Assembly (NCBI GenBank): GCA_041675415.1
Contig: JBAYTX010000008.1
Coordinates: forward strand, 2,368 to 66,367
DNA from: Rhizobium sp.
GTDB taxonomy: Bacteria; Pseudomonadota; Alphaproteobacteria; Rhizobiales; Rhizobiaceae
Reading direction: 5' to 3'
Length of the DNA: 64,000 nucleotides
The notes under the pieces were generated by a model, which was not told where the DNA came from, did no database searches, and saw nothing but the letters and a program-made list of their open reading frames with translations. Position numbers and translations under genes: made by a program. This document shows, one piece after another, positions 10,278 through 60,860 of the stretch. How positions within the stretch are numbered: position 1 is the first letter of the stretch; each line of letters begins with the position of its first letter.

Positions 10278-10907
10278 TCAGCTGATGCCCTCCCACAGCG
10301 TGAAAGCGGCGGCCGCGATCAGCAGCATTCCCGCGCCACGGCCGATCCAGGCAGTGACGGCCGGATTGCCGACAAGGGTCTGGCGGGCGCGATCTCCCGC
10401 CAGCGCCACCGCGCCGTAGACCGCGCCCTGCGCGGCCACGGTCATCAGTCCCATGACGATACCCTGCATCCAGATCGGCCCGTATTCGGGTTTGAGAAAT
10501 TGCGGATAGACGGCGATGACGAAGATATAGGCTTTGGGGTTCATCAGGCAGGTCGCCACCGCCTGGCGGAAGGTGGTCCATCCGCTGCGCAACCTGCCGG
10601 TCTCGACCGACGAAACGGTGATCGAGCTTCGAACCAGCGACAGGCCGATCCAGATCATATAGGCGGCGCCGGCGACGAGAACCGGCACGAAAAAGCGCGG
10701 CGCGAAGGCGACGATGAACCCGGTGCCGAGCGTGCCATAGAGCGTATGCACCGCCCCGCCGGTCATCATGCCCCCGGTTGCCGTCAACCCCGAGCGTCGG
10801 CCACCCGACAACGCGCTTGCCAGAACATAGATCATGTCCATACCCGGGACGATGATGATGCCGAGTATCAGGACGAAGAAAAGCCAGAGATTTTCGCTGT
10901 AAGTCAT
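10278..10907 (-). CDS. LysE family amino-acid exporter
   Basis: 209 aa with 5-6 hydrophobic segments and the N-terminal PGMDMIYVL motif typical of LysE/RhtB. Internal ATG at complement 10905-10907. Confidence 0.85.
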   Translation of the reverse strand: MTYSENLWLFFVLILGIIIVPGMDMIYVLASALSGGRRSGLTATGGMMTGGAVHTLYGTLGTGFIVAFAPRFFVPVLVAGAAYMIWIGLSLVRSSITVSSVETGRLRSGWTTFRQAVATCLMNPKAYIFVIAVYPQFLKPEYGPIWMQGIVMGLMTVAAQGAVYGAVALAGDRARQTLVGNPAVTAWIGRGAGMLLIAAAAFTLWEGIS

Positions 10908-11038
10908 GTCAGTATCCTTGAGGTAAGGCGAAGGCGCTGCCGCTGTTTTCAGACGACAATTCAGTCTGTTGTGACGTAACCTAGCGGCCGCCAACTGACA
11001 GCGTCCTGTCAGGAGAGACGAGAGGAAGGCCTAGAATC

Positions 11039-11743
11039 ATGCGCAAGGCATCGCGTCTTTTCGAGATCATCCAGATCCTGCGCGTCGCGCGGCGGGCAGT
11101 GACGGCCAGGACCATGGCCGAGGCGCTGGAAGTGACCGAGAGGTCGATCTACCGCGATATCGCCGAACTCCAGGCGATGCGGGTTCCGATCGAGGGTGAA
11201 CGCGGGCTCGGCTATATCCTCAGGCCCGGATTCGACCTGCCGCCTTTGATGTTCACCATCGAGGAAACGGAGGCGATGGTGCTGGCGCTGGCGCTGCTCG
11301 AGCGGACCGGTGACGGGGAACTGAAACAGGCGGCGAAGCGCATCAGCCAGAAAATCGCCGGCGCGCTGCCGCAACCCCTGCGCCAGGCGCTCTCGACGAA
11401 TGCGCTGCACGCATGGGGAAGCCCCGCCCCCTCGCCCGAGGGCATCGATCTGGCACTGGTGCGGCGCGCGATCCGCGACGAGCGCAAGTTGGAGATCGAC
11501 TATCGCGACGAATTCGGCCGGGCCACGGAACGCACCATCCGACCGATCGCGCTGATCTACTATTCGCAGACCGCCAATATCGTTGCCTGGTGCGAATTGC
11601 GGCAGGCGCTGCGCAACTTCCGCGCCGACCGCGTGGAGCATTGCGACGCTCTCGACGCGTTCTTCAAGGGCGAAGGCGAGGGATTGAGAAACCTCTGGAT
11701 CGGCGGCTGGTCCGCCAGCGGCGGTGCGCCGGAAATTCCCTAG
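11039..11743 (+). CDS. YafY family transcriptional regulator (HTH + WYL domain)
   Basis: N-terminal HTH_11-like region (SRLFEIIQILR...MAEALEVTERSIYRDI) and a C-terminal WYL-like region (KLEIDYRDEFGRATERTIRPIALIYY). Confidence 0.85.
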   Translation: MRKASRLFEIIQILRVARRAVTARTMAEALEVTERSIYRDIAELQAMRVPIEGERGLGYILRPGFDLPPLMFTIEETEAMVLALALLERTGDGELKQAAKRISQKIAGALPQPLRQALSTNALHAWGSPAPSPEGIDLALVRRAIRDERKLEIDYRDEFGRATERTIRPIALIYYSQTANIVAWCELRQALRNFRADRVEHCDALDAFFKGEGEGLRNLWIGGWSASGGAPEIP

Positions 11744-12609
11744 ATCGGAAGTGTGCGGCTCGGCTCACGGCCGAAGCCGACGATCTCCAACCGGTCGGCA
11801 TGAACCTCGACCATGGCGAAGGCGTTTTCGCGCTCGGTATCGACCATGCCCTTGAAGTTGACGAAATGGGTGCCGCCGAGCTCGCCATAATTGCCGGCGT
11901 GGTTGTGGCCGCAGAAATAGGCGGCCACCGCCGGCGACCCGGACAGAAGGCCGGCAACGGTCTCGGCGTCCCAGAGATTATGATCGTTATGCGGATAGAG
12001 CGGATAGTGGCCCAGCACAATCACCCTTTCTCCGGCGGCCTCCGCAAGCTTCAGCCGCCCGGAAAGCCAGGAAAGCTGCGCCTCGCTGACGCCGGCATTC
12101 CAGCTTTGCGCATTGGCGGCGCCGGCGCTTTTCAGCGCATCGAGCCTTTCGGCTGCCAGCGCCCGGCGCGGATCGCCAACCGGCGGGGCGAAGAGCGAGA
12201 TCTCGTTGCCGTCGGTGACGATGATCCGCACGCCGTTGCGCACGAAATCGTAATAGGGCGCAGGCATCGCCAGCTTCTCGTGGACCCCCGGCAGCTTGTC
12301 CGCGGAAACTGCGAAATCATGATTGCCCGGCAGGAACAGGCATTCATGGCGCAGCCCGGTATAGACAGGCAGGATATCGTCGAAACTCTCGAAGTCGCGG
12401 TCAATAATGTCGCCCAGCGTCAGCACGAAATCGAGATCCTCCGCATTCAGCCGCTCGACGGCCTGGCCAAGCTTGCCGAGGCTGTTGGCGTAGTAGCGCC
12501 CAAGCGTCAGGTTCGGCTCGGCGGGGGCATATTGCGGATCGGCGATGATGCCGAAACGAAGGATGGGAGCGGAGGATTTCACGGAGGGCATAGTGAGGCG
12601 TTCGAGCAT
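11740..12609 (-). CDS. metallophosphoesterase, ADPRibase-Mn / CDP-alcohol diphosphatase-like
   Basis: Calcineurin-like motifs: ADPQ, GDIIDR, GNHD, GHYP and GHNH. From memory the overall N-terminus resembles the ADPRM family. Start uncertain (ATG 12609 or 12591, neither with a clear SD). Confidence 0.75.
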   Translation of the reverse strand: MLERLTMPSVKSSAPILRFGIIADPQYAPAEPNLTLGRYYANSLGKLGQAVERLNAEDLDFVLTLGDIIDRDFESFDDILPVYTGLRHECLFLPGNHDFAVSADKLPGVHEKLAMPAPYYDFVRNGVRIIVTDGNEISLFAPPVGDPRRALAAERLDALKSAGAANAQSWNAGVSEAQLSWLSGRLKLAEAAGERVIVLGHYPLYPHNDHNLWDAETVAGLLSGSPAVAAYFCGHNHAGNYGELGGTHFVNFKGMVDTERENAFAMVEVHADRLEIVGFGREPSRTLPI

Positions 12610-13072
12610 TGAGGATGCGCGGGCATAGGATGCCCGCGTGACAAGGCAATGACAGTTAGCGTGTCGATCGACGACTCTACCTCTGGCTGCATCAATCGGC
12701 ACAATCAAGGATAGCAAATAAATTTGCCGAGATCGTCATGACTTCCGTCATTTTCAATAAATCAAAAGTTAACCATGCACGTCTAAACTTTTACCTATAC
12801 TGCTTTACTTTATAACCAGACAGGATTTTCGCACCACCAGACAAACTGCACTTTCGACAATTACTGACAACTCAACACAATAACCGACGCTGCCTATAGT
12901 TTGTGCAATTATATATATAGTTTGCACTCATTTTAGGCTAAAATTACATATTGCCGATTGCCTATTATTTTAGGCCTGACCCCATGTAACGCCGTTGCCA
13001 GAATGACCTTCCCATTCGTTCAAGACTTCGGGAACAGAATTTCAAATGACGATTGTCAAAGGAGATACTTTC

Positions 13073-15448
13073 ATGAAAGACTTTGCTCATACCGACGGGA
13101 AGGGCCGGTCCGCCGCGCGGCGCGCCAGCGGCGGACTGACGATCAGCATTCGCGCCATGCTCCTGCTCGTGGTCTCGGTCTTCGTTCTCGCCCTATTGGC
13201 GCTCGCGCTCCTGAGCATGGGGAAGGCGCTCGACCAGATGAATGCCGCCAAGGCCATGCGCGAGAACAACTCGCTCAGCAGCCATTTTCTCGACAGCGCC
13301 GGCGCCTACGCGGCCGAACGCGGGCTGACGAACGCGGCGCTGTCGGCGCCGACGAAGATTGCGCCGGACACACTGTCGAAAATCGCGCAGTTGCGCCAGC
13401 GTGGCGACGCCGCCCTTTCGGCGGCGCTCGACGCCGTGGCCGGCCGCGCGACCTTCCCGGACAAGCAACGACTGGTCACGACCGTGCTCGACAACAAGAA
13501 AGAGGTCGACACGATCCGCGGCATCGTGGACGCACAACTCGCACTGGAAGGTGCGGCGCGGGATGCGGCAGCCTCCAAGCCATGGGTACCGACCGTCACC
13601 GCACTCATCATGTCGTCGCAGGATCTGAGGATCGCCGCGCAGGTCGTCCCCACCTCCGCACTCGCCCGCACGCAGATCATGCTCGATCTTAGGCAGTCAA
13701 TGTGGGTCATCAGCGAGTATGCGGGCCGGGAGCGGGCGGCGATCAGCGGGCTGATCGGCCGCAATGCGCCGATGAACGCCGCGACGCTCGCGGAACTTTC
13801 CGAGCATCGGGGCCGCCTCGAACAGGCGTGGGCGATGATCGAGGCCTACGAGAAACGCGACTTCACAAACCCGGAGATCGTGAGCGCGATCTCGACGGCG
13901 CGAGCAGCGTTCTTCGAGACCTTCGAGACCACGCGGAAAAACGTCTACGAAGCCGGAACCGGTGACGGCGTCTATCCGATGGCCGGCGACCAGTGGATCG
14001 CAGCCGCGACCAAGGCGATCGATACCCTGCTTGCCCTCTCCACCGCTATAGGAAACGCCACTTCCGACTACACCTCGGCGATCGAGAGCGACGGGCGCAC
14101 CAGCGTCGTCGTCAGCGGAATCGTCCTGGTTCTCGCGGTCGCTCTCGGCGCCTTCTCGTTCTGGATCGTCGTCTCCCGCGTCAGCGCGCCGGTGCAACGC
14201 CTCACGAGCATCATGTCGAGGCTCGCCGACGGCGATCTGGAGGTCGCCATTCCCTCCGTCGAGCGCGGCGACGAGATCGGCCAGATGGCGCGTGCGGTAG
14301 AAGTCTTCCGCCAGGCCGGTCTGAACAATCTCCGGCTCGAAGCGGAGGCGGAAGAGAGCCGCAAGCTGACCGACCAGGAGCGACGCCAGCGCGAGGCCCA
14401 GAAGGCCGCGGAGGCGCTGGAACTGCAGGACACGACCGCCGCGCTCGGCACAGCGCTCGAGCGGCTGGCGGAGGGAGACCTGACGGTACGGATCGAGACG
14501 CCGTTCGTCGGCACGCTCGAGCAGGTGCGCCTCGACTTCAACGGCTCGATCGAGAAACTGCATTCGGCCCTGCGCGTCGTCGGCGACAATGCCGAGGCGA
14601 TCGCCGGGGGGTCGCGCGAGATCCAGTCCGCATCGGACGACCTGGCCAAGCGCACGGAACAACAGGCGGCCGCTGTTGAGGAGACTGCCGCCGCGCTGGA
14701 GGAGATCACGCAGACCGTGGCCGACAGCACCCATCGAGCCGAGGAAGCCGGCGGGCTCGTCGCCAAGACCCGCACCGACGCCGAAAGGTCTGGACAGGTC
14801 GTCAGGAGCGCCATCGACGCCATGGGCCAGATCGAGAATTCGTCGAACGAGATCAGCAACATCATCGGCGTGATCGACGACATCGCCTTCCAGACGAACC
14901 TTCTGGCACTTAACGCCGGCGTGGAAGCCGCCCGCGCAGGCGAGGCCGGCAAGGGTTTCGCCGTCGTGGCCCAGGAGGTGCGCGAACTCGCCCAGCGGTC
15001 CGCGAGTGCGGCGAAGGAGATCAAGACTCTGATCACCACGTCTTCCGAACAGGTGAAGAGCGGCGTGCAACTGGTCGGCGAGACCGGACGGGCGCTGGAG
15101 CAGATCGTCGCGCAGGTCTCCGAAATCGACCTCAACGTCTCCGCGATCGTCGAGGCCGCGCGCGAGCAGACGACCGGCCTCAAGGAGATAAACAACGCCG
15201 TGAACGCGATGGACCAGGGTACGCAGCAGAACGCCGCGATGGTCGAGCAGACCACCGCCGCGAGCCATAGCCTCGCACGCGAGGCGGAAACGCTGCGCAA
15301 TCTGCTGTCGCAGTTCAAGACCGCTCAGCACGCATCGGCAAGGATTGCCGAGGCCCATGCGCAAGACCAGCCCGTCGCATCGCCGGCCCGCCGGCTGATG
15401 GCCAAGGTCGCCGGCGCGCCGGCGCGGGGCGAATGGGAAGACTATTGA
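13073..15448 (+). CDS. methyl-accepting chemotaxis protein
   Basis: Two TM segments flank a periplasmic domain. There are HAMP regions (DGDLEVAIP..GDEIGQMARAVEVF) and a conserved signalling domain (AFQTNLLALNAGVEAARAGEAGKGFAVVAQEVRELAQRS). I prefer the ATG at 13073 (AAGGAG 8 nt upstream) over 13046. Confidence 0.9.
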   Translation: MKDFAHTDGKGRSAARRASGGLTISIRAMLLLVVSVFVLALLALALLSMGKALDQMNAAKAMRENNSLSSHFLDSAGAYAAERGLTNAALSAPTKIAPDTLSKIAQLRQRGDAALSAALDAVAGRATFPDKQRLVTTVLDNKKEVDTIRGIVDAQLALEGAARDAAASKPWVPTVTALIMSSQDLRIAAQVVPTSALARTQIMLDLRQSMWVISEYAGRERAAISGLIGRNAPMNAATLAELSEHRGRLEQAWAMIEAYEKRDFTNPEIVSAISTARAAFFETFETTRKNVYEAGTGDGVYPMAGDQWIAAATKAIDTLLALSTAIGNATSDYTSAIESDGRTSVVVSGIVLVLAVALGAFSFWIVVSRVSAPVQRLTSIMSRLADGDLEVAIPSVERGDEIGQMARAVEVFRQAGLNNLRLEAEAEESRKLTDQERRQREAQKAAEALELQDTTAALGTALERLAEGDLTVRIETPFVGTLEQVRLDFNGSIEKLHSALRVVGDNAEAIAGGSREIQSASDDLAKRTEQQAAAVEETAAALEEITQTVADSTHRAEEAGGLVAKTRTDAERSGQVVRSAIDAMGQIENSSNEISNIIGVIDDIAFQTNLLALNAGVEAARAGEAGKGFAVVAQEVRELAQRSASAAKEIKTLITTSSEQVKSGVQLVGETGRALEQIVAQVSEIDLNVSAIVEAAREQTTGLKEINNAVNAMDQGTQQNAAMVEQTTAASHSLAREAETLRNLLSQFKTAQHASARIAEAHAQDQPVASPARRLMAKVAGAPARGEWEDY

Positions 15449-30564: not shown

Positions 30565-33384
30565 TCATGCCAGGGCCCGCCGCTTCGCCGGCGGGCCGGC
30601 GACCAATTTCAGGATATCCTCGCTCGACTGGGGTTTGCCGAAATAATAGCCCTGCCCTTCCTCGCAGCCCATGCTGGCGAGCTGGCGCCATTCGGCCTCG
30701 CCTTCGATCCCTTCGCAGACCACCTTCGCGCCGAGACCGGAGGCAAGCGCCTTGATGGCGCAGACGATATTCCGGCTTGCCTGGTCGCTCGCGACATGAC
30801 GCACGAAGGTCTGGTCGATCTTGATCCTGTCTAGATGAAACTTGGCGATATAGCCGAGCGACGAATAGCCGGTGCCGAAATCGTCGAGCGCGATCTTCAC
30901 GCCGAGCACGCGAAGCGCCGAGAGCTGGCCGAGAACGGAATCGGCTGAATCGAGGAAGGCCGATTCGGTGATTTCGAGATGGAGGCGATCAGGTGTAAGA
31001 CCCGAGACCTGCAATGCATGCCGGACAGCGGCGACGATATCGCTACGGACGAACTGGAGCGGAGAGACATTCACTGCCACGGTCATGTGGCCGGGCCATG
31101 CCGAAGCGGCCCGGCACGCTTCCTCCAGCACCCACGCCCCGAGTTGACAAATGAAGCCGCTCGCCTCGGCGATTTCGATGAATTCCAGCGGCGGGATGAC
31201 GCCTTGTTCGGGATGCATCCAGCGGACCAGCGCTTCCGCGCCGATGACACCGCCGCTCGCAAGATCGACCTGCGGCTGATAGAGGACAAAGAACTGACCG
31301 CTCTCCAGCGCGCCCTTCATTTCCGCCTCGAGCGCCAACGCCCGCAACTGCCGCCCGGCAGAATCGGGATCATATACGCTGTAGCCCGATCCGGCAGACG
31401 CCCTTGCGCGATCGAGCGCCGCTTCGGCGCCGGCAACGAGCTGACCCGCGCTTCCGTGGGCGCCGGAGGAGCAGCATATGCCGATCCGCGCGCCAATCTC
31501 GGCGACAGAATTTCCGACAAAGAAGGGCTTGCTCAGGAGAGCGATCATCCGATCCGCGTAATCGGACGCCGAAGCGGCGCGCATGACGGCGGGAACCGCA
31601 ATGCAAAAGCCGTCGCCATCGGTGCGTCCGATCAATGCACCTTCGGGGACATCGTCCCGAAGGCGCGCGGCAACCGCCCGCAGCAGCAAATCGCCTGTCG
31701 CGCGGCCGAGGACCGTGTTGATGGCCGAGAAACGATGGAGGTTGAGGGCAAAGATCGCCCATCCGTCCATGCCGGCAGTCTCGATACGCCGCAGCAATTC
31801 ATCGCGTCGAAGCGCTCCCGTCAGTTCGTCGAACTGCGACAGGTTCTTCAGTTTTTCTTCATAGGCGCGGCGCTCGGTCATATCGCGCACAGTCAGGCAG
31901 GCGACGAACGGCCGCTCTTGCCCGTCGTCAGATCCATCCACTGTTTCAAGGACCGAAACCGTCACATGGCCTTCCAGCGCCCTGTTCTCCCCGCCCGAAA
32001 CCACCGAGAACTCGAATGGAACAGGCAGGACTCCGGCGCTGCCACGCAGGCCGCGCGCCTGTTCCAGCGCGGCGGCCATGGGCTTCGGAGCGTTTTCAGC
32101 AAAATCCATGCACATCGAACGGCAGAGATCCGCGCCGAAAATCACCTCGGCGGAACGGCTCGCCTCAAGCACCTTTCCGTTGTGATCGAGGATGATGACT
32201 GCATCTGCACTGTCATCGATCACCCGGCGCAACATCTTCTGGGAATTACGGCTTTCGAGTTGGGCGAGCCTGGCGAGCCAGCGGCCGATATCCACATTTT
32301 CGACAAGGTAGAGCAGCAATCCGGCCGCCAGGATCACCTGGAAGACCGCTGTCGGCAGGAGCAAGGCCCGCTGCGCCTGCAAGAGGAAGGCCGCCGCCTC
32401 CACCCCGGCGCTGGTGACAAACAGGAACGGCAGGAGAATCCAACCCGAGATCGAGTGCGCCGACCGGATCGAGATTACAATCAGTCCCGCCAGGGCCAGC
32501 GCATAGGGCATCGGATCGACGGGCACGGGCACCCGCCCCTGCAGCAGGGTCTCGGCACCGAGAATGTGGAGCATGGGACCATTCAGGAGCCCGTAGACCG
32601 GAACCGCGAATATGTCCTTGAGTTCCGTGGCAAAGGCGCCGATCACGACGGACTTGTCCGAAAGCTGCTCTTCGGGGATCGCCCCCGACAGCAGATCCGC
32701 CACAGAGAATACCGGAACCGTGCCCGGAGAGATGGAGAAATCGACGGAGAAATCCCCGGTGCGGGTCTCGGGCACCCCGGCAAGCAGGGCCGCGACGGAC
32801 TGTACCACCGTATCACCCAGCTTCACGCCGAGCGGGAGCGAGCGGACGACCCCGTCGGGATCCGGAACGACATTGGCGCTGGCCAGCCAGGCGACCTCTT
32901 CGAACTGCGCAAGCGGGCGAGAAACCACCGTCGTCTCATGCCCGGGATTGGCATTCTGATACTGCACGAAGGCCGGCAGCACGACCCCACCTCCAGCATC
33001 GGACAAGGATCGGGCGAGGCGGGCATCGGCTTCCGGGGTCGAACGGGCGCTGAAATCGACATCAAGGAAAATATCGCTAGCGCCGGCTTCGGCGAGCTTG
33101 TCGATAACCTCGGCATAGACGGTACGCGGCCAGGGCCAGACGCCTATCTTGTCGAGGCTCTGCTTGTCGATGGCGATGAAGACGAAGCGGTCACCGGCCG
33201 GTCTCGGAGCCTGGGCGGCACGCCATTCCGACAGGCCGAGATCGACGCTCCGGAGGAAGCCGGAAGCCGGGAGCGCGATCGGCAACAGCAGCAGGACGAG
33301 GGCCGTGAGGACACTATAGAAATTGATCCGCCCCGTGCTTGCGGCCAGTCTGCGCAGTCCTTTCACCCAGCCGGTCGAGGTCAT
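30565..33384 (-). CDS. CHASE2-PAS-GGDEF(degenerate)-EAL membrane signalling protein (c-di-GMP phosphodiesterase candidate)
   Basis: N-terminal TM, a periplasmic CHASE2-like region, then several TM segments. The GGDEF domain reads GRTDGDGF in place of RxGGDEF. The EAL domain is intact (EALVRW, DDFGTGYSSL, KIDQTFV, EGIE, QGYYF). The ATG overlaps the stop of the upstream FecR-like gene. Confidence 0.9.
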   Translation of the reverse strand: MTSTGWVKGLRRLAASTGRINFYSVLTALVLLLLPIALPASGFLRSVDLGLSEWRAAQAPRPAGDRFVFIAIDKQSLDKIGVWPWPRTVYAEVIDKLAEAGASDIFLDVDFSARSTPEADARLARSLSDAGGGVVLPAFVQYQNANPGHETTVVSRPLAQFEEVAWLASANVVPDPDGVVRSLPLGVKLGDTVVQSVAALLAGVPETRTGDFSVDFSISPGTVPVFSVADLLSGAIPEEQLSDKSVVIGAFATELKDIFAVPVYGLLNGPMLHILGAETLLQGRVPVPVDPMPYALALAGLIVISIRSAHSISGWILLPFLFVTSAGVEAAAFLLQAQRALLLPTAVFQVILAAGLLLYLVENVDIGRWLARLAQLESRNSQKMLRRVIDDSADAVIILDHNGKVLEASRSAEVIFGADLCRSMCMDFAENAPKPMAAALEQARGLRGSAGVLPVPFEFSVVSGGENRALEGHVTVSVLETVDGSDDGQERPFVACLTVRDMTERRAYEEKLKNLSQFDELTGALRRDELLRRIETAGMDGWAIFALNLHRFSAINTVLGRATGDLLLRAVAARLRDDVPEGALIGRTDGDGFCIAVPAVMRAASASDYADRMIALLSKPFFVGNSVAEIGARIGICCSSGAHGSAGQLVAGAEAALDRARASAGSGYSVYDPDSAGRQLRALALEAEMKGALESGQFFVLYQPQVDLASGGVIGAEALVRWMHPEQGVIPPLEFIEIAEASGFICQLGAWVLEEACRAASAWPGHMTVAVNVSPLQFVRSDIVAAVRHALQVSGLTPDRLHLEITESAFLDSADSVLGQLSALRVLGVKIALDDFGTGYSSLGYIAKFHLDRIKIDQTFVRHVASDQASRNIVCAIKALASGLGAKVVCEGIEGEAEWRQLASMGCEEGQGYYFGKPQSSEDILKLVAGPPAKRRALA

Positions 33385-34433
33385 CCATTGCGGCCTATCA
33401 ATGGGAACATCGGGTCGAGCATGGCTTTTTTCCCGTTTCCGTTGCCGTTCCCGTTTCCGTTGCCGTTCCCCTTGCCGTTGCCGTTTCCACCTGCGTTGCC
33501 GTTGCCGTGACCATTGCCTCCGGCGTTCCCGTTGCCATTGCCATTGCCTCCGGCGTTCCCATTGGCATTGCCATTGCCGTTATTGCCGCCGGGATTGCCA
33601 TTGCCGTTGTTGGCGGCATTGCCGTTACCGTTGCCGTTGCCGGAACCGCCCTTACCGCCATTGCCATTGTTGGAGTTGGTGTTACCGGATCCATTGTCGG
33701 CATCGTCGTCGGACGCGCCCGCGGCCGATTTCCCCGCATTCCCGGCGCGGCCATTCGTCGTGCCGTTGGTACCCATGCGGGCGGCATTGGCGCTGGCGAT
33801 GGACGCCGGAGTCTTCGGTCCCAGCACCGGCACGCTGGCCGCAGTCGGCGGAACAGACGCGACCTTGTCCTTCGGCCCGACGCCGACGACCCGCATTCCC
33901 TGGCCGCTGGTGGGATCGACCGTCACGCTCTGCCCAGGCCGCACATGCGCACGCTCGCCGCGCGCAAATCCGGTGACCTCGACAAGGCCGCGGCTGACAC
34001 TGACCGAGGCCGTGTTGCGGGTCACCGTCACGCCGAACTGGGTGCCCTTGACGACGGCTGCCAGGAAAGGCGTCTGAACGGATGTATGGGGCCTGTTGCG
34101 TGTCTCGATATCAAACAGCATGGAGCCGTACTGCGCGGCAATTTCCGTCTTGCGGACGAAGAAACCCGATGTCGTAAGCGACGCCAGGCTATTGGGCTGG
34201 AAAGTGATGCTTTCCTTGTTTCGCGTCAGCAGAAGCCGTCCGCGCGCGCCCGTCACGATCACCGCCTTGTTTGGGATCCTTGCGCCCACCTCGACCGCGG
34301 TCCAGGTCGCATTGTCGGTCGTGTATTGTACCGGCTGGCTGACCTTGGCAGCGATCCACTCCGCGCACTGTCCGGCACCCGCCGAGGCAAGAATGAAAAG
34401 CACCGCTGAACAGAATTTGACCACAAAAGACAT
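33381..34433 (-). CDS. FecR domain protein with a C-terminal Gly/Asn-rich low-complexity tail
   Basis: Signal peptide (MSFVVKFCSAVLFILASAGAGQCA), then a FecR-like beta-rich domain (ARGRLLLTR...GTQFGVTVT...VSVSRGLVEV), then about 110 aa dominated by GN repeats. ATGA overlap with the CHASE2 gene. Confidence 0.8.
   Translation of the reverse strand: MSFVVKFCSAVLFILASAGAGQCAEWIAAKVSQPVQYTTDNATWTAVEVGARIPNKAVIVTGARGRLLLTRNKESITFQPNSLASLTTSGFFVRKTEIAAQYGSMLFDIETRNRPHTSVQTPFLAAVVKGTQFGVTVTRNTASVSVSRGLVEVTGFARGERAHVRPGQSVTVDPTSGQGMRVVGVGPKDKVASVPPTAASVPVLGPKTPASIASANAARMGTNGTTNGRAGNAGKSAAGASDDDADNGSGNTNSNNGNGGKGGSGNGNGNGNAANNGNGNPGGNNGNGNANGNAGGNGNGNGNAGGNGHGNGNAGGNGNGKGNGNGNGNGNGNGKKAMLDPMFPLIGRNG
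33424..33775. repeat. imperfect short tandem repeats encoding the (Gly-Asn)n tract
   Basis: The plus strand is a run of GTTGCC/ATTGCC/GTTTCC units. It includes a 30-bp tandem duplication (33511-33540 versus 33541-33570) with 2 mismatches. Confidence 0.8.
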
Positions 34434-34641
34434 AGCATCCCCCAATATCCGGCTCATTGAAGGAAAAAACCCCTTAATCTTCAGTGAAGACAAGGCCCCG
34501 TCTGTAATCGTGACTAAGGGATCATGAATGCAATGGCGCGCTAAAATAAAATGAGGGATTCAGGAAAGAGCGCCGGGAACGGGCCTGTGGTGAACAGGCC
34601 ATCCGTCTGGCGCCAGCGGGCCTTCAGCGCGGCGGCGCGTC

Positions 34642-36666: not shown

Positions 36667-36900
36667 ATGGACATCGGCGCCCGCCACGGCAAGACGGCGG
36701 CTCAAGTTGCGCTGCGCTGGCTGGTCCAGCAGCAGAGCGTCGCGGCGCTGACCAAGACCGCGACCGAAAGCCGGCTCGCGGAAAATTTTGCCGTCTTCGA
36801 TTTCTCGCTCGACGGCGACGAAATGGGCGCAATCTCAGGGCTCGCCAGACCCGACGGGCGGATCGTCAACCCGGGGCATCTCGCGCCCAAGTGGGATTGA
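36667..36900 (+). pseudogene. 5'-truncated aldo/keto reductase remnant (last ~77 codons only)
   Basis: HGKTAAQVALRWLVQQ....L.K....SRLAENFAVFDFSL..DEM..I matches only the C-terminal end of roughly 275-aa AKRs. No AKR-like sequence lies upstream in any frame. The remnant retains an ATG with an AAGGAG SD. Confidence 0.6.
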
Positions 36901-36951
36901 GGGGGGGGGAATGCTGCGGAGTATCAGAACAGTGCTACGCCAACCAAAGCA

Positions 36952-37563
36952 TCACATGTAGCTTCTTAAAAAGTCGCGACCAACATGCGCTAGCGCAATA
37001 AACGATGGCGCCATCGTCAATGCCAGTCCGGATGAAAAAAGAGAAAACACAATAATTCTAAATGCGCACCTCGATCTGTCTTTTGCTTCAAAAAAATTTC
37101 GCAAGGTGAATAATTTCGCCGCCTGCTGCGGCTGGTTACCAACACCTGCCGAAATCGCATTTTTGTAGAGCTTAGCCTCTTCTTCTACAACCGATCCCAA
37201 TTCGACATGCTGCAAGATAAACTGCAACTTCTGCGACAACTCCGACGCTGTAACAATCGATTGAGCTCGCTCAACATAGTCGTCCGCCGAATTGAATCTC
37301 TTCGCGATTTCCGGCGAGGTTACTTGAAATATAAACGATCCAAGACCGAATAAAAATAGACCAAAATACAATAAATAAAACCCAATTCCTAGTTTGATTT
37401 CGGAATTGACACCCATTCCGGTGAATGGCGAAATGAACCTCGCCACCTCATCCTGCAATAGTAAAATGTATCCTATAAATGGCATCAGTATTGAAAATTT
37501 AGATACAGGAGATCTGCCGATAGAACCAAGGGCTGACCAGGTAATCTCGTAACAGAGTCTCAT
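36952..37563 (-). CDS. membrane protein of unknown family (3 predicted TM helices), second gene of the AT-rich islet operon
   Basis: 203 aa from the ATG at complement 37561-37563, which overlaps the upstream stop as ATGA. Hydrophobic helices are FSILMPFIGYILLL, IKLGIGFYLLYFGLFLFGLGSFIF and FRIIVFSLFSSGLALTMAPSFIALA, with a charged helical segment between TM2 and TM3. AT-rich codon usage unlike the host. Confidence 0.65.
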   Translation of the reverse strand: MRLCYEITWSALGSIGRSPVSKFSILMPFIGYILLLQDEVARFISPFTGMGVNSEIKLGIGFYLLYFGLFLFGLGSFIFQVTSPEIAKRFNSADDYVERAQSIVTASELSQKLQFILQHVELGSVVEEEAKLYKNAISAGVGNQPQQAAKLFTLRNFFEAKDRSRCAFRIIVFSLFSSGLALTMAPSFIALAHVGRDFLRSYM

Positions 37564-38969
37564 AACTCCAATGCATCCAAGATAGCGTTGACGTTTTCCG
37601 GTTGCAGCGCCCAACGATAAGCTGGGTGTATTTCCCAACCGTAGCCGAAATCAACAATTTCATGACCCAGAAAGCGCGATTCCTCGAAATATTTTCTTAC
37701 AAGATTACCATTTTCCTCCACTTTTCTAGCAGTTATAAAATCTATTTTATACAAAAATTGTATCAACGCGCGCGAACTAACCGCCTTACCATTCGTAAAT
37801 GTAAAATTATTCTGTTGAATAATATTCGTAAGCTTCCTAGACAACTGATCAGTTGGAAACGTATAATTTGTTGCGGTTTTCCGCTCTATCTTTGTTGGCT
37901 TCATGGCAAGAAGCAAACGTTCAATCTGTGGTAACTCACTCTTGAATTCGTTTATGATATCCTGCAAGCGCTCTTGCGAATACATCTCAAAAATGCCATT
38001 TAGATCTTGCGATGATATGATACTGGCACCACGCTTGTTTGCACTTTTCGCCGCAAGCCGAAAGAGCTTCACTAGGTCACGTGGTCTCGCCCGCGTCAGC
38101 GAAAGCAGGATTTTGTGAACCGGCCGATCCTCCCACTTACCCTTTCCGGAAAACCGAGGCTCAATAACTTCCTTTAGTATAAGACTGGTAATCTGTCCTT
38201 GATCAAGATTATCAATAGCCTGCTGCGTGTACTCTAATCTGAAGAACGTAGCAATTCTCTTTGCAATGACCCGTAGAATGTCATCATTAATCCATCTCAG
38301 CCAAATGACATTTCCTTCAATCTTATCCGTTGACTCGTCCGACGTCCGAACCAAAAAATATACGTCACTTCTAAGTCCGATTCGGAATCGGATGCGTGGG
38401 TGTTTCCCCCCTATATCGCGGATAGCGTTTAGCAGAGCAGAAATATTTGTGATATCTTCAGGGTTTGCTTTCCATCCGCGGTCTATGTCATCAATATAAA
38501 TATTGATCGAGCGGACGTCCCCGTTCTCTAACCTCTTTTCGTCTAGCCACTTTACGATTAACTCAGCAAGAGAATTAGCAGAGGCATTTTCCAGCTCAGG
38601 GAGCTGATTGAGCATTGCCTTTTCAAATAGTGCGCCGAGTATTTCCCTTAAAATTCCTGTTTTCCACACCGAAATTTTGCGTACGAATTGGTCGTTTGGG
38701 TTGGTATCTGTCTGCACATTGAGCAATGCGTCCGGCTGCAACCAGACACAGGGAATATGCGCCTCTACGTCTGACAGATAAGCCCGTTTAAGAAGCGCGC
38801 TTTTGCCGACTCCTTTGTGACCAACAAGAACCCGTACAGGCAAGTTAGACGTCAGGGAGTCGTAAGCCATGTTCCTATAGAAGTATTCCTTCAGGCGTTC
38901 ATCGTTCTCATTTTCCGCATCATCCGCGCCAAATATTTGTTGTATCGTTGCATCGTCAAATGTGTGCAC
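37560..38969 (-). CDS. P-loop NTPase of unknown family (AAA+/STAND-like), first gene of the AT-rich islet operon
   Basis: 469 aa. Walker A GHKGVGKS (38799-38822) and Walker B INIYIDDID (38481-38507). There is a lid/sensor-2-like stretch, LTRARPRDLVKLFRLAAKSA. GTG start with GAGG 7 nt upstream. This is the only long ORF in a roughly 2-kb AT-rich stretch. Confidence 0.75.
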   Translation of the reverse strand: MHTFDDATIQQIFGADDAENENDERLKEYFYRNMAYDSLTSNLPVRVLVGHKGVGKSALLKRAYLSDVEAHIPCVWLQPDALLNVQTDTNPNDQFVRKISVWKTGILREILGALFEKAMLNQLPELENASANSLAELIVKWLDEKRLENGDVRSINIYIDDIDRGWKANPEDITNISALLNAIRDIGGKHPRIRFRIGLRSDVYFLVRTSDESTDKIEGNVIWLRWINDDILRVIAKRIATFFRLEYTQQAIDNLDQGQITSLILKEVIEPRFSGKGKWEDRPVHKILLSLTRARPRDLVKLFRLAAKSANKRGASIISSQDLNGIFEMYSQERLQDIINEFKSELPQIERLLLAMKPTKIERKTATNYTFPTDQLSRKLTNIIQQNNFTFTNGKAVSSRALIQFLYKIDFITARKVEENGNLVRKYFEESRFLGHEIVDFGYGWEIHPAYRWALQPENVNAILDALEL

Positions 38970-39003
38970 CTGAGGACCTCAGATTCATCGTTCAACATCA
39001 CTC

Positions 39004-39031
39004 GTTATAGATAATGCAATTCTTGTTTGAA
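39004..39031 (-). promoter_or_regulatory. sigma70-like promoter candidate for the islet operon
   Basis: The minus strand reads TTCAAA-N16-TATAAC, about 35 nt upstream of the GTG start. Confidence 0.3.
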
Positions 39032-39209
39032 GCACTACCGATTGTGTACCTTAGCGCGACATTTTGAAGTGCATTCCTTCATCCCGCAAGTCTTGCGCGC
39101 ACTATTCCGCAGACTTCTCAACGTTGCCCACTCCAAAAATACGTAGGATCGCTCCAACGGCCCTGTCCAGTCGGTAAGCGTTCACGCGGCGCCTCCACCT
39201 CCTCCGTCA

Positions 39210-39336
39210 CCCCGGCCCTGAGCCGGGGGCCAGCAACGGCGCAGCAAAAGACTCCTCTCGCGATCAATGTCTTGATCGCGCTGGATGCCGGATCAAGTCC
39301 GGCAGGGCGGCGGGTTTCTGCTTGCGCCGGAAACCC
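39210..39336. repeat. stack of four GC-rich stem-loops (REP/RIME-like mosaic)
   Basis: CCCCGGC-CCTGA-GCCGGGG (39210-39228); CGCGATCAA-TGTC-TTGATCGCG (39259-39280); TGCCGGA-TCAAG-TCCGGCA (39286-39304); GGGTTTC...GAAACCC (39312-39336). Confidence 0.45.
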
Positions 39337-39347
39337 CCACCCCAATC

Positions 39348-39377
39348 AAAAAAAACCGCCGGATCGCTCCGGCGGTT
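39348..39377 (-). terminator. rho-independent terminator of the 39404-39793 gene
   Basis: The minus strand reads CCGCCGGA-GCGA-TCCGGCGG followed by T8. Confidence 0.7.
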
Positions 39378-39403
39378 TCTTCATTCCAATCCTTGCGCCC
39401 GTC

Positions 39404-39793
39404 TCAGACGAACTGGCTCAGGCCCGGAACCGAGGAGACGACGTTGTCGACCACTTCGTCGCCGGCATATTCGCGGGCGGCGGCGATCGTTTCCCTGGCG
39501 AGCGCGGTGATCTCGCCCATACCGAGGCCCTGGGCCATCAGCTGCTGGCCGAGACCCATGATGCCGCCGCCGCCGATCGCGCTCATCAGCCCGCCGAGGA
39601 TGCCCTTGCCCTCGCCTTCGCCATTGTACCTGGCGACGAGATCCATGGCGCCGGGGACCGCCTCGATCATCTTGGCGACCGGACCGTCGGCCGCTTCGCG
39701 CTGGAGGAAGCCGAGCATCATGCCGACGGACTTTTCCGCGACGTCCGGCTCGATGCCGACCTTGTCGGCGATGCGGGTTACGAGTTCATTCAT
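39404..39793 (-). CDS. small conserved hypothetical protein (possibly DUF2780-like)
   Basis: 129 aa with a strong SD (GGAGG) and a strong terminator. Helical N-terminal half and a Gly/Met-rich centre (GGLMSAIGGGGIMGLGQQLMAQGLGMG). The family name is tentative. Confidence 0.55.
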   Translation of the reverse strand: MNELVTRIADKVGIEPDVAEKSVGMMLGFLQREAADGPVAKMIEAVPGAMDLVARYNGEGEGKGILGGLMSAIGGGGIMGLGQQLMAQGLGMGEITALARETIAAAREYAGDEVVDNVVSSVPGLSQFV

Positions 39794-39830: not shown

Positions 39831-40031
39831 CGTAAATTATTCGGGCTGCGAACTCAAGCACCCATATCGCGTTCCACGGCATTCTCCGCGCATTCTCCGG
39901 GGCGCGGGGCGCGGCTCCATCCGGGCTGTTGTCATGTTCCACACTATCCTTATAACTACAATACGATGTTTCATTGAAGAGTGGGAGTCCGCCGGCGGTG
40001 CCGCCGGCATTCCCCGCGAAGGACGAGGCGC

Positions 40032-41594
40032 ATGCTCGAAGACGGAAAGCTCTATATCGGCACCAGCCGCAATCCCGACGACAGCCTCAACAAGGGCGAA
40101 TATCTCGAGCTGAAATACGGCAACCGCCACGGCATCGTCACCGGCGCCACGGGCACCGGCAAGACGGTGACGCTTCAGGTGCTGGCCGAGAGCTTTTCCA
40201 ATGCCGGGGTGCCGGTGTTCTGCGCCGACATCAAGGGCGACCTCTCCGGCATCGCCGTCATGGGCGAGCCGAAGGACTGGGTCGACCAGCGAGCCAAGCT
40301 GATCGGTTTTGACGATTTCGCCTACCAGGAATTCCCGGTGATCTTCTGGGACCTCTACGGCGAGCAGGGCCACCGGGTGCGCACCACCGTCGCCGAGATG
40401 GGGCCGCTTCTGCTCTCCCGGCTGATGGATGCATCGGAAGCGCAGGAAGGCGTCTTGAACATCGCCTTCAAGATCGCCGACCAGGGCGGGCTGCCGCTGC
40501 TCGACCTGAAAGACCTGCAGGCGCTCCTGAACTACATGGGCGAGCATGCAAGCGAGCTGTCGAGCCAATTCGGGCAGATCTCGAAAGCGTCGGTCGGCTC
40601 GCTGCAACGCGGCCTGCTGATCCTCGAACAACAGGGCGCGGAAAATTTCTTCGGCGAGCCGGCGCTGGCGATCTCCGACATCATGCGCACCACCAATGAC
40701 GGGCGCGGGGCGATTTCGGTGCTGGCCGCCGACAAGCTGATGATGAACCCGAGGCTCTACTCGACCTTCCTGCTGTGGCTGTTGTCGGAACTGTTCGAGG
40801 AATTGCCGGAAGTGGGCGATCCGGACAAGCCGAGGCTGGTGTTCTTCTTCGACGAGGCGCATCTCCTGTTCAACGACGCGCCGAAGGTGCTGATCGAGCG
40901 GATCGAGCAGGTCGTCCGCCTCATCCGCTCCAAGGGCGTCGGCGTCTATTTCGTCACCCAGAACCCGCTCGACGTGCCGGAAACGGTTCTCGCGCAAATG
41001 GGCAACCGCATCCAGCATGCGCTGCGCGCCTACACGCCGCGCGAGCAGAAGGCGGTCAGAACCGCAGCCACCACCTTCCGCCCCAACCCGGCCTTCGACT
41101 GCGAGACCGCGATCACCATGCTCGGCATCGGCGAGGCGCTGGTCTCGACGCTTCAGGCCAAGGGCGTGCCCTCGGTCGTCGAGCGCACGCTGGTGCGCCC
41201 GCCGTCGGGGAGGCCCGGGACGATCAGCGAGGCCGAGCGCCGCGCGGTGATGAATGTGAGCCCGGTCGCGGGCGTCTACGACAAGGATATCGACCGGGAA
41301 TCGGCCTACGAGATCCTTCTTGCCCGCGAGCAGAAGGCGGCCGAAGCCGAGGCTGCCCGGCGGGCGCAGGAAGAGGGCCGCACAGCCGACAGCGCCGAAG
41401 GCCGCTGGACGCTGCCCGGCTTTGGCACCGAGGACGACGACGAGCGCACGACCAAGACCAGGACGACAACGATGCGCCGAACCTATCAGCGCGAAACGGT
41501 GTTCGAAGCGGCCATGAAGAGCGCCGCACGCTCGGTGGCCAATTCCGTCGGACGGGCGATCGTGCGCGGAATTCTGGGAAGCCTGAAGCGGTAG
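40032..41594 (+). CDS. DUF853 / YjgR-type HerA-like P-loop ATPase
   Basis: Walker A GATGTGKT, Walker B VFFFDEAH and a C-terminal basic tail. The N-terminus is typical of the YjgR family. Internal ATG at 40032. Confidence 0.85.
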
Positions 41595-49852: not shown

Positions 49853-50302
49853 ATGAACGACACCAAGGAGGAAACGGCACCGACGCTCGACAGGCAGCTT
49901 TGCTTTGCGGTCTATGGCGCGGCGCACGCCTTCAATCGGGCCTACAAACCGCTGCTGGAGCCTTTGGGCCTCACCTATCCGCAATATCTAGTGATGATGG
50001 TGCTCTGGGAGGAAGATACCCAGTCGGTCAAGGCGATCGGCGACAGGCTGGGGCTCGATTCGGGAACCCTTTCGCCGCTCCTGAAGCGGCTGGAACAGGC
50101 GGGCTATGTCGTGCGCAAGCGCTGCTCCGACGACGAGCGGCAGGTCCTCGTCTCGCTCACCGAGACCGGAACCGGACTGCGCAGGAGAGCCTGCGACGTG
50201 ATGCAATCGATCGGCAAGGCGACCGGCTGCACCCGCCAGGAAATCGAAAACCTCCGCAACCGACTGCAGGACCTGCGCCACCAGCTCACGCCGGAGGAAT
50301 AA
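49853..50302 (+). CDS. ohrR: organic hydroperoxide-sensing MarR family repressor
   Basis: 149 aa with an N-terminal sensing Cys in LDRQLCFAVY and a MarR wHTH. Internal ATG at 49853. Confidence 0.85.
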   Translation: MNDTKEETAPTLDRQLCFAVYGAAHAFNRAYKPLLEPLGLTYPQYLVMMVLWEEDTQSVKAIGDRLGLDSGTLSPLLKRLEQAGYVVRKRCSDDERQVLVSLTETGTGLRRRACDVMQSIGKATGCTRQEIENLRNRLQDLRHQLTPEE

Positions 50303-50457
50303 AGGGCGGAGGTCTCTGCAGGTGTCATGTATCAGGTGCCACCGAAGATCGGTTTAGGGACGTTGTGTCCGGCTGCCGCGAAACTCCGACTTTTGCGACG
50401 GAGTTTTGCGGCGAAACTGCTCGAAGGTTTCAGGTCGTCACAAGACTGATACCTGGT

Positions 50458-51201
50458 TCAGACTGCCACGAAGCCGCCATCGACGAATAGCTCCTCGCCG
50501 CCAACGAAGCTGCTTTCCTCCGATGCGAGAAACAACACCGCCTTGGCAATCTCTTCGGACCGGGCGAGCCTGCCGAACGGAATGGTTTGCTGCATCCATT
50601 CCTCGGCGCCGGCATTGTTCTGAAGATAGGTCTGCATCGCAGGTGTCAGGACCATGCCGGGTGAAACGACGTTCACGCGAATGCCCTGGCTCTTGAGATC
50701 GGTTGTCCATGTTCGTGCGAACGAGCGGATCGCTGCCTTCGTAGCGCTGTAGATGGATAGGTTGGCAAAACCCTTGGCTCCCGCCCCCGATCCGGTCAAC
50801 ACAACTGCGCCACCGGCAGACATAAGGGGCAGAGCCTTCTGGACGGTGAAGACCATGCCCTTCACGTTGATGCCGAAGACACGATCGAAATGATCTTCTT
50901 CAATGGCGCCGATCGGGGCGGATTCGGACACGCCGGCGTTTGCGAAGACCACATCCACGCGCCCGCGATCACGCTCTACTTCCGCATAGAGCCTGTCGAG
51001 ACTTGCCAGATCGCTGACATCGCCTTGGACGCCAACGGCGCCGTTGCCGATTTCCTCTAGCGCCTCGTCCAGGCGTTCTTGCCGGCGTCCCGTGACATAC
51101 ACATGGGCACCATCTGCTGCGAATAGCTTGGCCGTGGTCAAGCCTATGCCGTCCGTTCCGCCCGTGATCACCACGATCTTGTCCTCAAATCGCTTTGTCA
51201 T
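50458..51201 (-). CDS. SDR family oxidoreductase
   Basis: TGGTDGIG, NAG and YSATK motifs. 247 aa. Confidence 0.9.
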   Translation of the reverse strand: MTKRFEDKIVVITGGTDGIGLTTAKLFAADGAHVYVTGRRQERLDEALEEIGNGAVGVQGDVSDLASLDRLYAEVERDRGRVDVVFANAGVSESAPIGAIEEDHFDRVFGINVKGMVFTVQKALPLMSAGGAVVLTGSGAGAKGFANLSIYSATKAAIRSFARTWTTDLKSQGIRVNVVSPGMVLTPAMQTYLQNNAGAEEWMQQTIPFGRLARSEEIAKAVLFLASEESSFVGGEELFVDGGFVAV

Positions 51202-51221
51202 GTCATTGGCTCGCTTTCATA

Positions 51222-51270
51222 GTAAGTGGAGGATTGCTCCATTTACTATATGGAGATATCCTCCACTTAC
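51222..51270. promoter_or_regulatory. nested 49-bp palindrome, candidate TetR operator
   Basis: The outer 13-bp arms GTAAGTGGAGGAT / ATCCTCCACTTAC are perfect. The inner arms are CTCCAT / ATGGAG. It fills most of the 74-bp SDR-TetR divergent region. Confidence 0.5.
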
Positions 51271-51275
51271 AAGTC

Positions 51276-51848
51276 ATGGCGAGGCAGATTTTTTTGGCTG
51301 ACGAAACCCCATTGCGAGTCGATGCGCAGCTCAACAAGGAGCGGATCCTTGCCGCAGCCGAGGAAGCCTTTATGGAGCGAGGCGCTGGCGTCTCACTGGA
51401 TGACGTCGCAAGGCGCGCCGGGGTTGGGATCGGGACGCTTTATCGCCGCTTCCCAACGCGGGAAGACCTCCTGGCCGCGACGTACAGCGCCCGATTCCTG
51501 GCTTTCGCTGAGAAGAGCCGTGCCAGGTCAGTCAATCTTGACCCTTCAAGCGCCTTGCGCGCCTATCTTGAAGAACTCGTCCAATATACGACTGTTTATC
51601 GAGGTTTCGCGGCGTCTCTCGGGACGGTTCTACAGATTGGAACGCCGGGATGTCTCGCCACCAGTGAGGAAGGTGCCCGCCTTCTGCATGCCGCACAGGA
51701 GGCGGGAGCAGTTCGACCTGATATCAGCTTCAACGACATCGTCTGCGTGGCAACCGCAATATCACTAGCGACCGAGCAAGACAGCTCACCACAAGCGCAC
51801 ATCGCTCATTTGGTCGGTGTATTCATGAATGGAATCGTCGAGCGCTGA
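51276..51848 (+). CDS. TetR family transcriptional regulator
   Basis: TetR_N HTH (ILAAAEEAFMERGAGVSLDDVARRAGVGIGTLYRRFPTREDL). 190 aa from the internal ATG. Confidence 0.85.
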   Translation: MARQIFLADETPLRVDAQLNKERILAAAEEAFMERGAGVSLDDVARRAGVGIGTLYRRFPTREDLLAATYSARFLAFAEKSRARSVNLDPSSALRAYLEELVQYTTVYRGFAASLGTVLQIGTPGCLATSEEGARLLHAAQEAGAVRPDISFNDIVCVATAISLATEQDSSPQAHIAHLVGVFMNGIVER

Positions 51849-60550: not shown

Positions 60551-60860
60551 CGTCTTTTCCTCGATATCGTGCCGTCAGAAACTGAAATTGCCGGAGGCCA
60601 CCGTCTTTCCGACACGGCACGGGAAAAGTGTCGGTCGTCAAACCAAATCTTGCAGGTTTAGCTCTCCTCTTCAGAGCGGTGACGCCTGGGTGAACTGCGG
60701 ACCCTGACGCCTGAGATACGATCCCGGGCAGACACTGTCAACATTTGGCGCGGGCTGCCCGTGTCAGGAATTTGTGAGCGCATCACCGGGACACGGCTTC
60801 AAACTCCGCCGCTTTGCGGTTAGCTTCGCCGGCAGCCAATCGAAGAGGAGAACGGACAAC

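Follow-up and report, generated by a model that had tools for sequence, protein, structure and literature searches.

A 64,000-nucleotide stretch from Rhizobium sp. (assembly GCA_041675415.1, contig JBAYTX010000008.1, positions 2,368 to 66,367; hereafter the window, at its full length) contains a sharply bounded AT-rich islet whose two genes code for an ATPase and a small membrane protein. Analysis of its composition, of both proteins and of the corresponding loci in related genomes leads us to regard this islet as probably being a 2.25-kb mobile two-gene cassette, horizontally acquired and lodged in an integrase-free hotspot, that we infer to specify an anti-phage pair of the abortive-infection type. 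The two genes form a single minus-strand operon placed between the 3' ends of convergent core genes, namely an aldo-keto reductase (AKR) gene, present here as a remnant, and a DUF2780-like gene. The following parts make up the cassette, loci of other genomes being designated throughout by L and a number:

37560..38969, minus strand: gene 1, an ATPase of 469 aa with a GTG start, assigned to the Sll1717 family of P-loop ATPases, with a putative ORC/Cdc6-like AAA+ fold
36952..37563, minus strand: gene 2, a membrane protein of 203 aa, predicted to have three transmembrane helices and assigned to no family
36910..36951, minus strand: cassette 3' tail of 42 nt, from the gene 2 stop to the poly-G junction, about 91% identical to L001
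38970..39162, minus strand: promoter/5'-leader region at the right end of the cassette, 92-99% identical to L001 until 39162

Composition and history of the islet

Between positions 36910 and 39130 the GC content is 0.441, against 0.632 in the remaining window. A preliminary description of this DNA had pointed to a sharp AT-rich islet of ~2.2 kb, and the statistics bear this out: 2.2-kb windows taken outside the islet (n=1147) have a mean GC of 0.632 (sd 0.0146, minimum 0.580), which places the islet at z = -13, every other 2.2-kb stretch of the window being at least 58% GC. The line counts given there are also correct, with 14 G/C at 37321-37380 and 43 G/C at 36721-36780. Cumulative GC puts the change points at 36919 and 39149, and alignment with relatives puts the junctions at 36909/36910 and about 39162, the switch to AT-rich composition falling within the 42-nt tail. 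Furthermore, the reported preference of both open reading frames (ORFs) for A/T-ending codons is upheld by every measure used: GC at third codon positions (GC3) is 0.458 in both islet genes, compared with 0.784 +/- 0.069 in 59 host ORFs (z = -4.7), the codon adaptation index calculated with the host table is 0.36 and 0.31 compared with 0.69 +/- 0.07, and the codons TTA and ATT occur 16.4 and 43 times per 1000 codons in the islet genes and 0.1 and 7 times in the host. As also reported before, the islet lacks the usual company of a mobile island, since no integrase or transposase is annotated among the genes neighbouring it and no tRNA gene was detected by a scan of the whole window. No Rfam family was found inside the islet, and promoter and terminator scans were uninformative.

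Comparison with relatives shows that cassette and flanks have had different histories. The same cassette occurs beside an intact AKR gene in Ciceribacter ferrooxidans (L001), to which the islet is about 94% identical and both flanks about 76-82%, with a step that coincides with the composition boundaries. Indeed, the synonymous divergence (dS) from L001 is 0.18 for the ATPase and 0.24 for its partner, compared with 0.60 for herA and 0.77 for the AKR remnant. The relationship is reversed in L108, whose cassette is 78.6% identical and whose flanks are 85-89% identical to those of the window, while L085 and L088 have flanks that are 91-94% identical at the nucleotide level, lack the islet and carry other genes in its place. 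These incongruent identities require repeated transfer or recombination and thereby exclude that the islet belongs to an ancient core. The recent horizontal acquisition proposed in the preliminary description is thus supported by four independent lines of evidence: the islet-free near relatives, the swapping of cargo, the conflict between trees and the AT-richness of the pair wherever it occurs. Neither of the two findings that were said to speak against it was obtained, as the composition lies far outside the range of the window and the genus as a whole does not share the islet.

A variable slot between convergent core genes and the route of arrival

The islet occupies a slot whose left side consists of mntH, mntR and the AKR remnant and whose right side consists of a hairpin terminator, the DUF2780-like gene and herA. 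The junctions and flanks are as follows:

36667..36900, plus strand: AKR remnant, the original start codon being fused in frame to the last ~76 codons
36901..36909, no strand: poly-G tract G9 that adjoins the AKR stop and bounds the variable slot on the left
39163..39349, no strand: GC-rich, hairpin-filled spacer between the cassette and the core terminator
39350..39381, no strand: hairpin terminator of the DUF2780-like gene (inverted repeat I3, 14-nt arms), the right edge of the slot
39404..39793, minus strand: DUF2780/DUF937-like core gene of 129 aa, convergent with AKR, right flank
39981-41594, plus strand: herA, right flank together with the DUF2780-like gene

The adjacency of the DUF2780-like gene and herA is kept across Hyphomicrobiales, and more than 1000 homologues of the DUF2780-like protein were found. 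Close relatives of the window were reached via this protein and by exact-protein look-ups, a HerA contig search having returned none closer than 78% identity among the matches listed. In these relatives, the stretch between AKR and the DUF2780-like gene holds at least eight different cargo states between fixed flanks, as expected of a hotspot. In L085, L086 and L087, which match the window at 91-94% in the flanks, the slot carries a LysR gene and a DUF2798 gene of normal GC, and L104-L106, whose DUF2780-like protein is 99% identical to that of the window, carry LysR+DUF2798 together with a gene for an unknown 389-aa protein. L088 and L089 hold a gene for a 1040-aa protein with a weak nSTAND3 P-loop match, C. 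lividus (L107) holds NA37, a 391-aa protein and BrnA, and the more distant L007 has a low-GC gene of the SUKH/SMI1 immunity family after AKR. L108, L109 and L110 encode an identical DUF2780-like protein and yet have three different cargos, namely the ATPase and membrane-protein cassette plus BrnTA in L108, a KAP NTPase in L109 (PADLOC PDC-S49, 82.8 bits) and AbiL in L110 (AbiLi 298.6 bits, AbiLii 90.1 bits). Recognised defence systems are found among the alternative cargos, with AbiL, the KAP NTPase and the BrnT/BrnA genes, the latter being present in the slot of L107, L108 and L110. An empty slot was not seen in any genome examined, some cargo being always present; the empty site predicted beforehand, with an AKR remnant adjoining the gene at 39404-39793, was therefore not encountered.

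Two of these cargos deserve a separate remark. The gene for the 1040-aa protein of L088 lies at 10690-13812 on the minus strand and has no match in PADLOC; its product may be an uncharacterised defence protein of the STAND type. At 10723-12898 of L107, the NA37 gene, encoding a YejK-like nucleoid-associated protein, overlaps the gene for the 391-aa protein without family, with BrnA adjacent, and the two overlapping genes are possibly another uncharacterised conflict pair.

The left junction is formed by the AKR 3' end and the G run. Full-length AKR has 274 aa, of which ~197 codons are gone from the remnant, the Pfam Aldo_ket_red profile being matched at positions 229-289 of 291 only. Alignment with the full-length AKR genes of L001, L085, L088 and L007 reveals the loss as an internal deletion, and its junction carries a GGA..ATCG microhomology. 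While the AKR 3' ends of L108-L110 match the remnant at 89-91% identity and those of L085, L088 and L001 at 77-78%, the mntR side of the window has its nearest match in L085 and L088, which makes the locus a recombination mosaic. The remnant may come from an AKR 3' fragment that travelled with a cassette, as in L108, rather than from a simple deletion in situ. The G9 run, already reported at 36901-36909, was verified and lies directly 3' of the TGA stop of the remnant. A run of 4-9 G follows the AKR TGA in all relatives examined (G5 in L001, G8 in L085, G4 in L088, G6 in L108-L110), and each different cargo starts right behind it.

At the right junction, homology of the upstream region to L001 breaks at 39162, just after a degenerate duplicate, shifted towards AT, of the hairpin that terminates the DUF2780-like gene (repeat family D1, 39135-39160 vs 39350-39375, 77% identity). 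L001 shares the spacer at 39163-39349, which is about 360 nt longer there, whereas L088 and L108 lack it and align with the window again from 39334; the terminator itself is kept in L001 and L088. In passing, the spacer resembles an intergenic element of the REP/RIME type, of which no second copy exists in the window.

The insertion mechanism had been called unclear in the preliminary description. This is no longer wholly so, as pieces of the flanks that occur in duplicate suggest recombination within flanking homology. Indeed, L108 possesses a second, decayed AKR 3' end with its TGA and a G6 run adjoining the cassette, and L001 possesses further terminator-like scraps. We read these scraps, together with those of the window, as scars of cassette exchange and accretion by recombination between homologous flanks. 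Cassettes would enter and leave by homologous recombination involving the AKR 3' end and poly-G on one side and terminator sequences on the other, and each exchange could leave duplicated flank scraps behind.

The main difficulty for this route is that identity to L001 falls exactly at both edges of the islet and not within the flanks, a step that simple flank-homology exchange does not predict and that fits a site-specific mechanism supplied in trans. The cassette could then be a residue or cargo of an element whose site-specific target is the AKR 3' end with poly-G or the terminator, its recombinase acting in trans or having been lost. Such an element would explain why all cargos start at the same nucleotide after the G run, and the AKR 3' end duplicated beside the L108 cassette is reminiscent of the att duplications left by elements that target the 3' ends of genes. 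A 20-nt direct repeat that brackets a related cassette in L004 points the same way. However, integrase, transposase and tRNA genes are absent in or near the islet at all Ciceribacter-group loci, the independent insertions share no terminal repeats or common cassette ends, and around the window islet neither direct nor inverted repeats exceed chance. With neither a recombinase nearby nor a tRNA gene in the window, the locus does not have the hallmarks of a classical integrase-borne island, and we consider a site-specific element unlikely.

Regarding repeats, a 7-nt CTGCGGA match found at both ends of the window islet was rejected as a chance occurrence. The repeat of L004, GG[A/G]TAAGTCTGCGAAAGATA, is present at 5998-6017 and 8180-8199 with 19/20 positions matching; its two copies, spaced by 2182 bp, enclose the ATPase and membrane-protein cassette exactly and may be an att-like or target-duplication signature.

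The ATPase, its membrane partner and their proposed function

Gene 1 belongs to the Sll1717 family, as indicated by a score of 238.7 bits (E 1.4e-70) against NCBIfam NF047389, whose cut-off is 75 bits; the best stretch aligns residues 142-455 with profile positions 178-454. Walker A (GHKGVGKS, 50-57), Walker B (DDID, 160-163) and an RxRPRD motif (293-298) are invariant in 51 homologues, in which R196 and R200 are also invariant or nearly so. Gene 1 therefore displays the conserved Walker A, Walker B and sensor/arginine motifs of AAA+ proteins, and its catalytic motifs are intact. The AlphaFold2 model (predicted local distance difference test score, pLDDT, 82.8) has as its top Foldseek matches the archaeal Orc1/Cdc6 structure 2qby_A (E 8e-8), 1w5t, 2fna and BrxC 9zdx; among these matches are SSO1545, an archaeal ATPase, and BrxC, the ATPase of BREX. 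TM-scores are modest (0.3-0.5). A BFVD fold search gave generic AAA+ matches only and a PDB sequence search chance matches only. The Pfam ORC-CDC6-like profile PF24389 stays under its threshold of 27 with 21.9 bits and covers the first ~50 residues only. Gene 1 has no match to the KAP NTPase profile PF07693 and is thus not a KAP NTPase by this measure, and its hydropathy profile shows no hydrophobic segment. A more remote likeness is that to NF053860, the model of the DS-41 defence ATPase, which scores 34.8 bits (E 9e-9) over the N-terminal ~160 residues only; as the equivalog cut-off is 370 bits, gene 1 is not a DS-41 member.

Gene 2 is translationally coupled to gene 1: its ATG (37563-37561) overlaps the TGA of the ATPase gene as ATGA and has a GGAG upstream. 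A 228-aa ORF delimited mechanically was rejected as gene 2, given that homologues align from M26 and that the ATGA overlap likewise gives 203 aa. The AlphaFold2 model (pLDDT 75) places helices at 19-44, 60-82 and 166-202, concordant with the hydropathy peaks, and predicts that helices 2 and 3 are separated by a soluble domain, itself helical. No match was found in Pfam, NCBIfam, PADLOC, PHROGs or a PDB fold search, and a likeness to BAR domains suggested by the latter was rejected (E>0.2). Nevertheless, a profile search with gene 2 retrieved 1065 cluster representatives at E<=1e-3, nearly all of 190-230 aa; the ~1000 clusters of this partner family are defined at 50% identity.

The association of both proteins extends well beyond the window, and the search of other taxa recommended in the preliminary description indeed retrieved the same pair at other sites in other Alphaproteobacteria. 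Immediately behind every ATPase homologue of 56-83% identity comes a ~200-aa protein that contains 2-3 transmembrane segments. The pair was examined in L002 (Brucella pituitosa), L004, L095-L098, L100 and L101/102 (Rhodopseudomonas); its GC is below that of the host in every case (hosts 49-65% GC), often as a sharp 2.2-kb AT-rich islet, for instance with 0.42-0.47 GC in the 0.64 GC genome of L100. Among its neighbours in L004, where it lies within a defence island, are CARF6 (382 bits), PRTase, a genuine PF24389 ORC-CDC6-like protein, a dGTPase (410 bits) and a methyltransferase, and L103 adjoins HEC-01A (507 bits). A scan of metagenomes with the ATPase found 5 loci and a scan of viral sequences found none.

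Distant members of the ATPase family also occur without a partner; a megaplasmid of Paracoccus, a Lactiplantibacillus plasmid of 13.6 kb and PfAC09, a Pf-type phage of Pseudomonas, carry such stand-alone copies. The NF047389 cut-off is passed by these Paracoccus and Lactiplantibacillus plasmid homologues, by PfAC09 ORF1 and by a 698-aa "hypothetical protein" of the Escherichia coli F plasmid (NC_002483.1 4303-6399; L091 4468-6564). The latter is a full-length Sll1717-family ATPase (292 bits) with a fused C-terminal domain that matches PADLOC PDC-M36A and gives a weak PD-(D/E)XK hint, and its N-terminus resembles DS-41 with E 1e-14. Its gene adjoins resolvase and transposase genes of the Tn3 family, and the protein was matched on 130 plasmids, mostly from Escherichia and Klebsiella. 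Literature searches on the accession of this protein and on Tn1000 passenger defence genes found nothing. As for PfAC09, a filamentous Pf-type phage, its ORF1 (L092 3956-5458) is a stand-alone Sll1717-family ATPase (243 bits) located near an excisionase gene and annotated as a "DNA-binding protein".

We propose that the likeliest function of the cassette is phage defence of the abortive-infection type. This proposal relies on the genomic context, the architecture of the pair, the swapping of effectors, the allelism with AbiL and a KAP NTPase and the remote similarity to the N-terminus of DS-41. Sensor-effector immunity is usually built in this way, one ATPase scaffold being combined with exchangeable effectors. 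The ATPase would be a sensor or switch driven by ATP and might read nucleic acid with a putative C-terminal alpha/beta domain; on infection it would activate its membrane partner, which would in turn collapse membrane integrity. On a wider scale, we advance more tentatively the possibility that the Sll1717 ATPase and its coupled three-helix partner constitute a widespread undescribed anti-phage system with interchangeable effectors, which would spread among high-GC Alphaproteobacteria without a recombinase of its own via the 3'-end/poly-G junction.

Several points weigh against defence as the function. Neither protein of the window has a match at E<=1 in PADLOC-DB v2.0.0, the cassette copies of L108 likewise have no match in PADLOC, and the DS-41 score is far under the family cut-off (34.8 vs 370 bits). 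A literature search on the Sll1717 family found no paper. Several copies of the pair lie between housekeeping genes, as in L100 between a dsbA-like gene and lepA, and the slot of the window also houses non-defence cargo (LysR+DUF2798) in other genomes, so that occupancy alone is no proof of defence. Finally, the collapse of the membrane as the last step of the mechanism is a pure analogy.

Part of these observations would also suit a selfish module of the addiction or toxin-antitoxin type, in which the membrane protein is the toxin and the ATPase its regulator and which spreads without defending against phages. The two small and tightly coupled genes, the patchy distribution of the pair in mobile contexts and the toxin-antitoxin genes BrnT/BrnA found in the same slot (L107, L108, L110) all agree with such a module. 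However, an AAA+ ATPase of 469 aa whose catalytic motifs are conserved would be an unusual antitoxin, and relatives of this ATPase keep it while the partner is either replaced by a fused nuclease-like domain or missing, as is typical of sensor-effector immunity. A selfish module therefore seems improbable to us, with the proviso that the two interpretations are not sharply separable, as many toxin-antitoxin and Abi systems overlap functionally.

A physiological membrane role devoid of any conflict is more improbable still. It would follow from membership of the Sll1717 family, as established by hidden Markov model, whose namesake in Synechocystis reportedly has an effect on quinol oxidase activity and on the redox state of plastoquinone, and from the copies located between housekeeping genes. 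It accounts poorly for a strain-variable, AT-rich pair that has a history in conflict with that of its hosts, is badly adapted to the codon usage of the host and shares its slot, as an allele, with AbiL and a KAP NTPase, and whose relatives reside on a Tn3-family element carried by the F plasmid, within a Pf prophage and on a small plasmid of Lactiplantibacillus. Lastly, an old, vertically inherited islet whose odd composition was kept by selection is barely conceivable: although the islet occupies the same site in C. ferrooxidans and L108, it is missing from the nearest relatives, three cargos are seen beside an identical neighbour protein, and its dS from L001 is threefold below that of the flanks, yet its nucleotide divergence from L108 is above theirs.

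Relation to described systems and significance

Hotspots of defence genes between conserved core genes are known from E. coli, Pseudomonas aeruginosa and Vibrio. The slot described here resembles them by its fixed core flanks, by its alternative low-GC cargo including AbiL, a KAP NTPase and BrnTA and by the lack of a dedicated integrase; it differs from them by its position between convergent 3' ends and by the scraps of both flanks that are duplicated around the cargo. To our knowledge, this slot of the Ciceribacter-Rhizobium group, between the AKR 3' end with its poly-G and DUF2780-herA, has not been described previously. The concept of a defence hotspot with an Abi-like two-gene system is already familiar, and the surprise is accordingly moderate.

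The cassette itself shares features with several known families without coinciding with any of them. While the window ATPase passes the NF047389 cut-off three-fold and so belongs to a family that is named but without function, the Alphaproteobacterial subfamily (at least ~56% identity) is set apart by a membrane partner that is always present and translationally coupled. Transmembrane NTPases, such as the single-gene "Tmn" system reportedly described by Gao et al. 2020, and the KAP NTPases, one of which occupies the slot in L109, likewise combine a P-loop NTPase with membrane-spanning segments; in KAP proteins the helices are inside the NTPase polypeptide, whereas in the cassette they belong to a separate coupled protein. 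ORC/Cdc6-like AAA+ ATPases of defence systems include BrxC of BREX and the PF24389 ORC-CDC6-like family known from conflict systems; Orc1/Cdc6 and BrxC are the best structural matches of the window ATPase, with modest TM-scores, and the cassette lacks BREX or PRTase partners. DS-41 ("AAA2"), an AAA-type ATPase of about 500 aa, was validated by the DefensePredictor study as an anti-phage system of one gene (PMC13092281). The window ATPase is similar to it over the N-terminal ~160 residues of DS-41, both proteins being of AAA type and in the ~500 aa range; unlike the cassette, the DS-41 system consists of its one gene and has no membrane partner (PMC13092281).

Other features of the window are mentioned for completeness. 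The second-lowest GC (0.42-0.46 over 500 nt), and the only one elsewhere in the window to be comparably low, is found at about 12400-12900, an intergenic region between divergent metallophosphoesterase-like and chemoreceptor genes that has the appearance of an ordinary promoter region. At 49900-51800 the GC is mildly low (0.59-0.60), with ORF GC3 values of 0.46-0.69; possible explanations are a foreign segment, older or weaker, and mis-framed ORFs. A 370-aa protein with a long C-terminal Gly/Asn-rich low-complexity run (GNGNGNAGGNG...) is encoded at 33381-34493 on the minus strand, and its orthologue in L088 has a FecR domain and precedes a CHASE2-GGDEF-EAL gene. A COG3860 cis-regulatory RNA of Rfam is present at 60650-60704 on the minus strand (66.5 bits vs a gathering score of 42.5).

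An anomaly of composition has thus been turned into a concrete candidate, a compact two-gene cassette with clear boundaries that contains a member of a named but functionless ATPase family and a member of a large membrane protein family devoid of annotation and of a Pfam or NCBIfam model. If validated, it would add a new ATPase-plus-membrane-effector system to the defence catalogue, confer a probable function on the long-unannotated 698-aa gene of the F plasmid and provide rhizobial genomics with a mapped defence hotspot.

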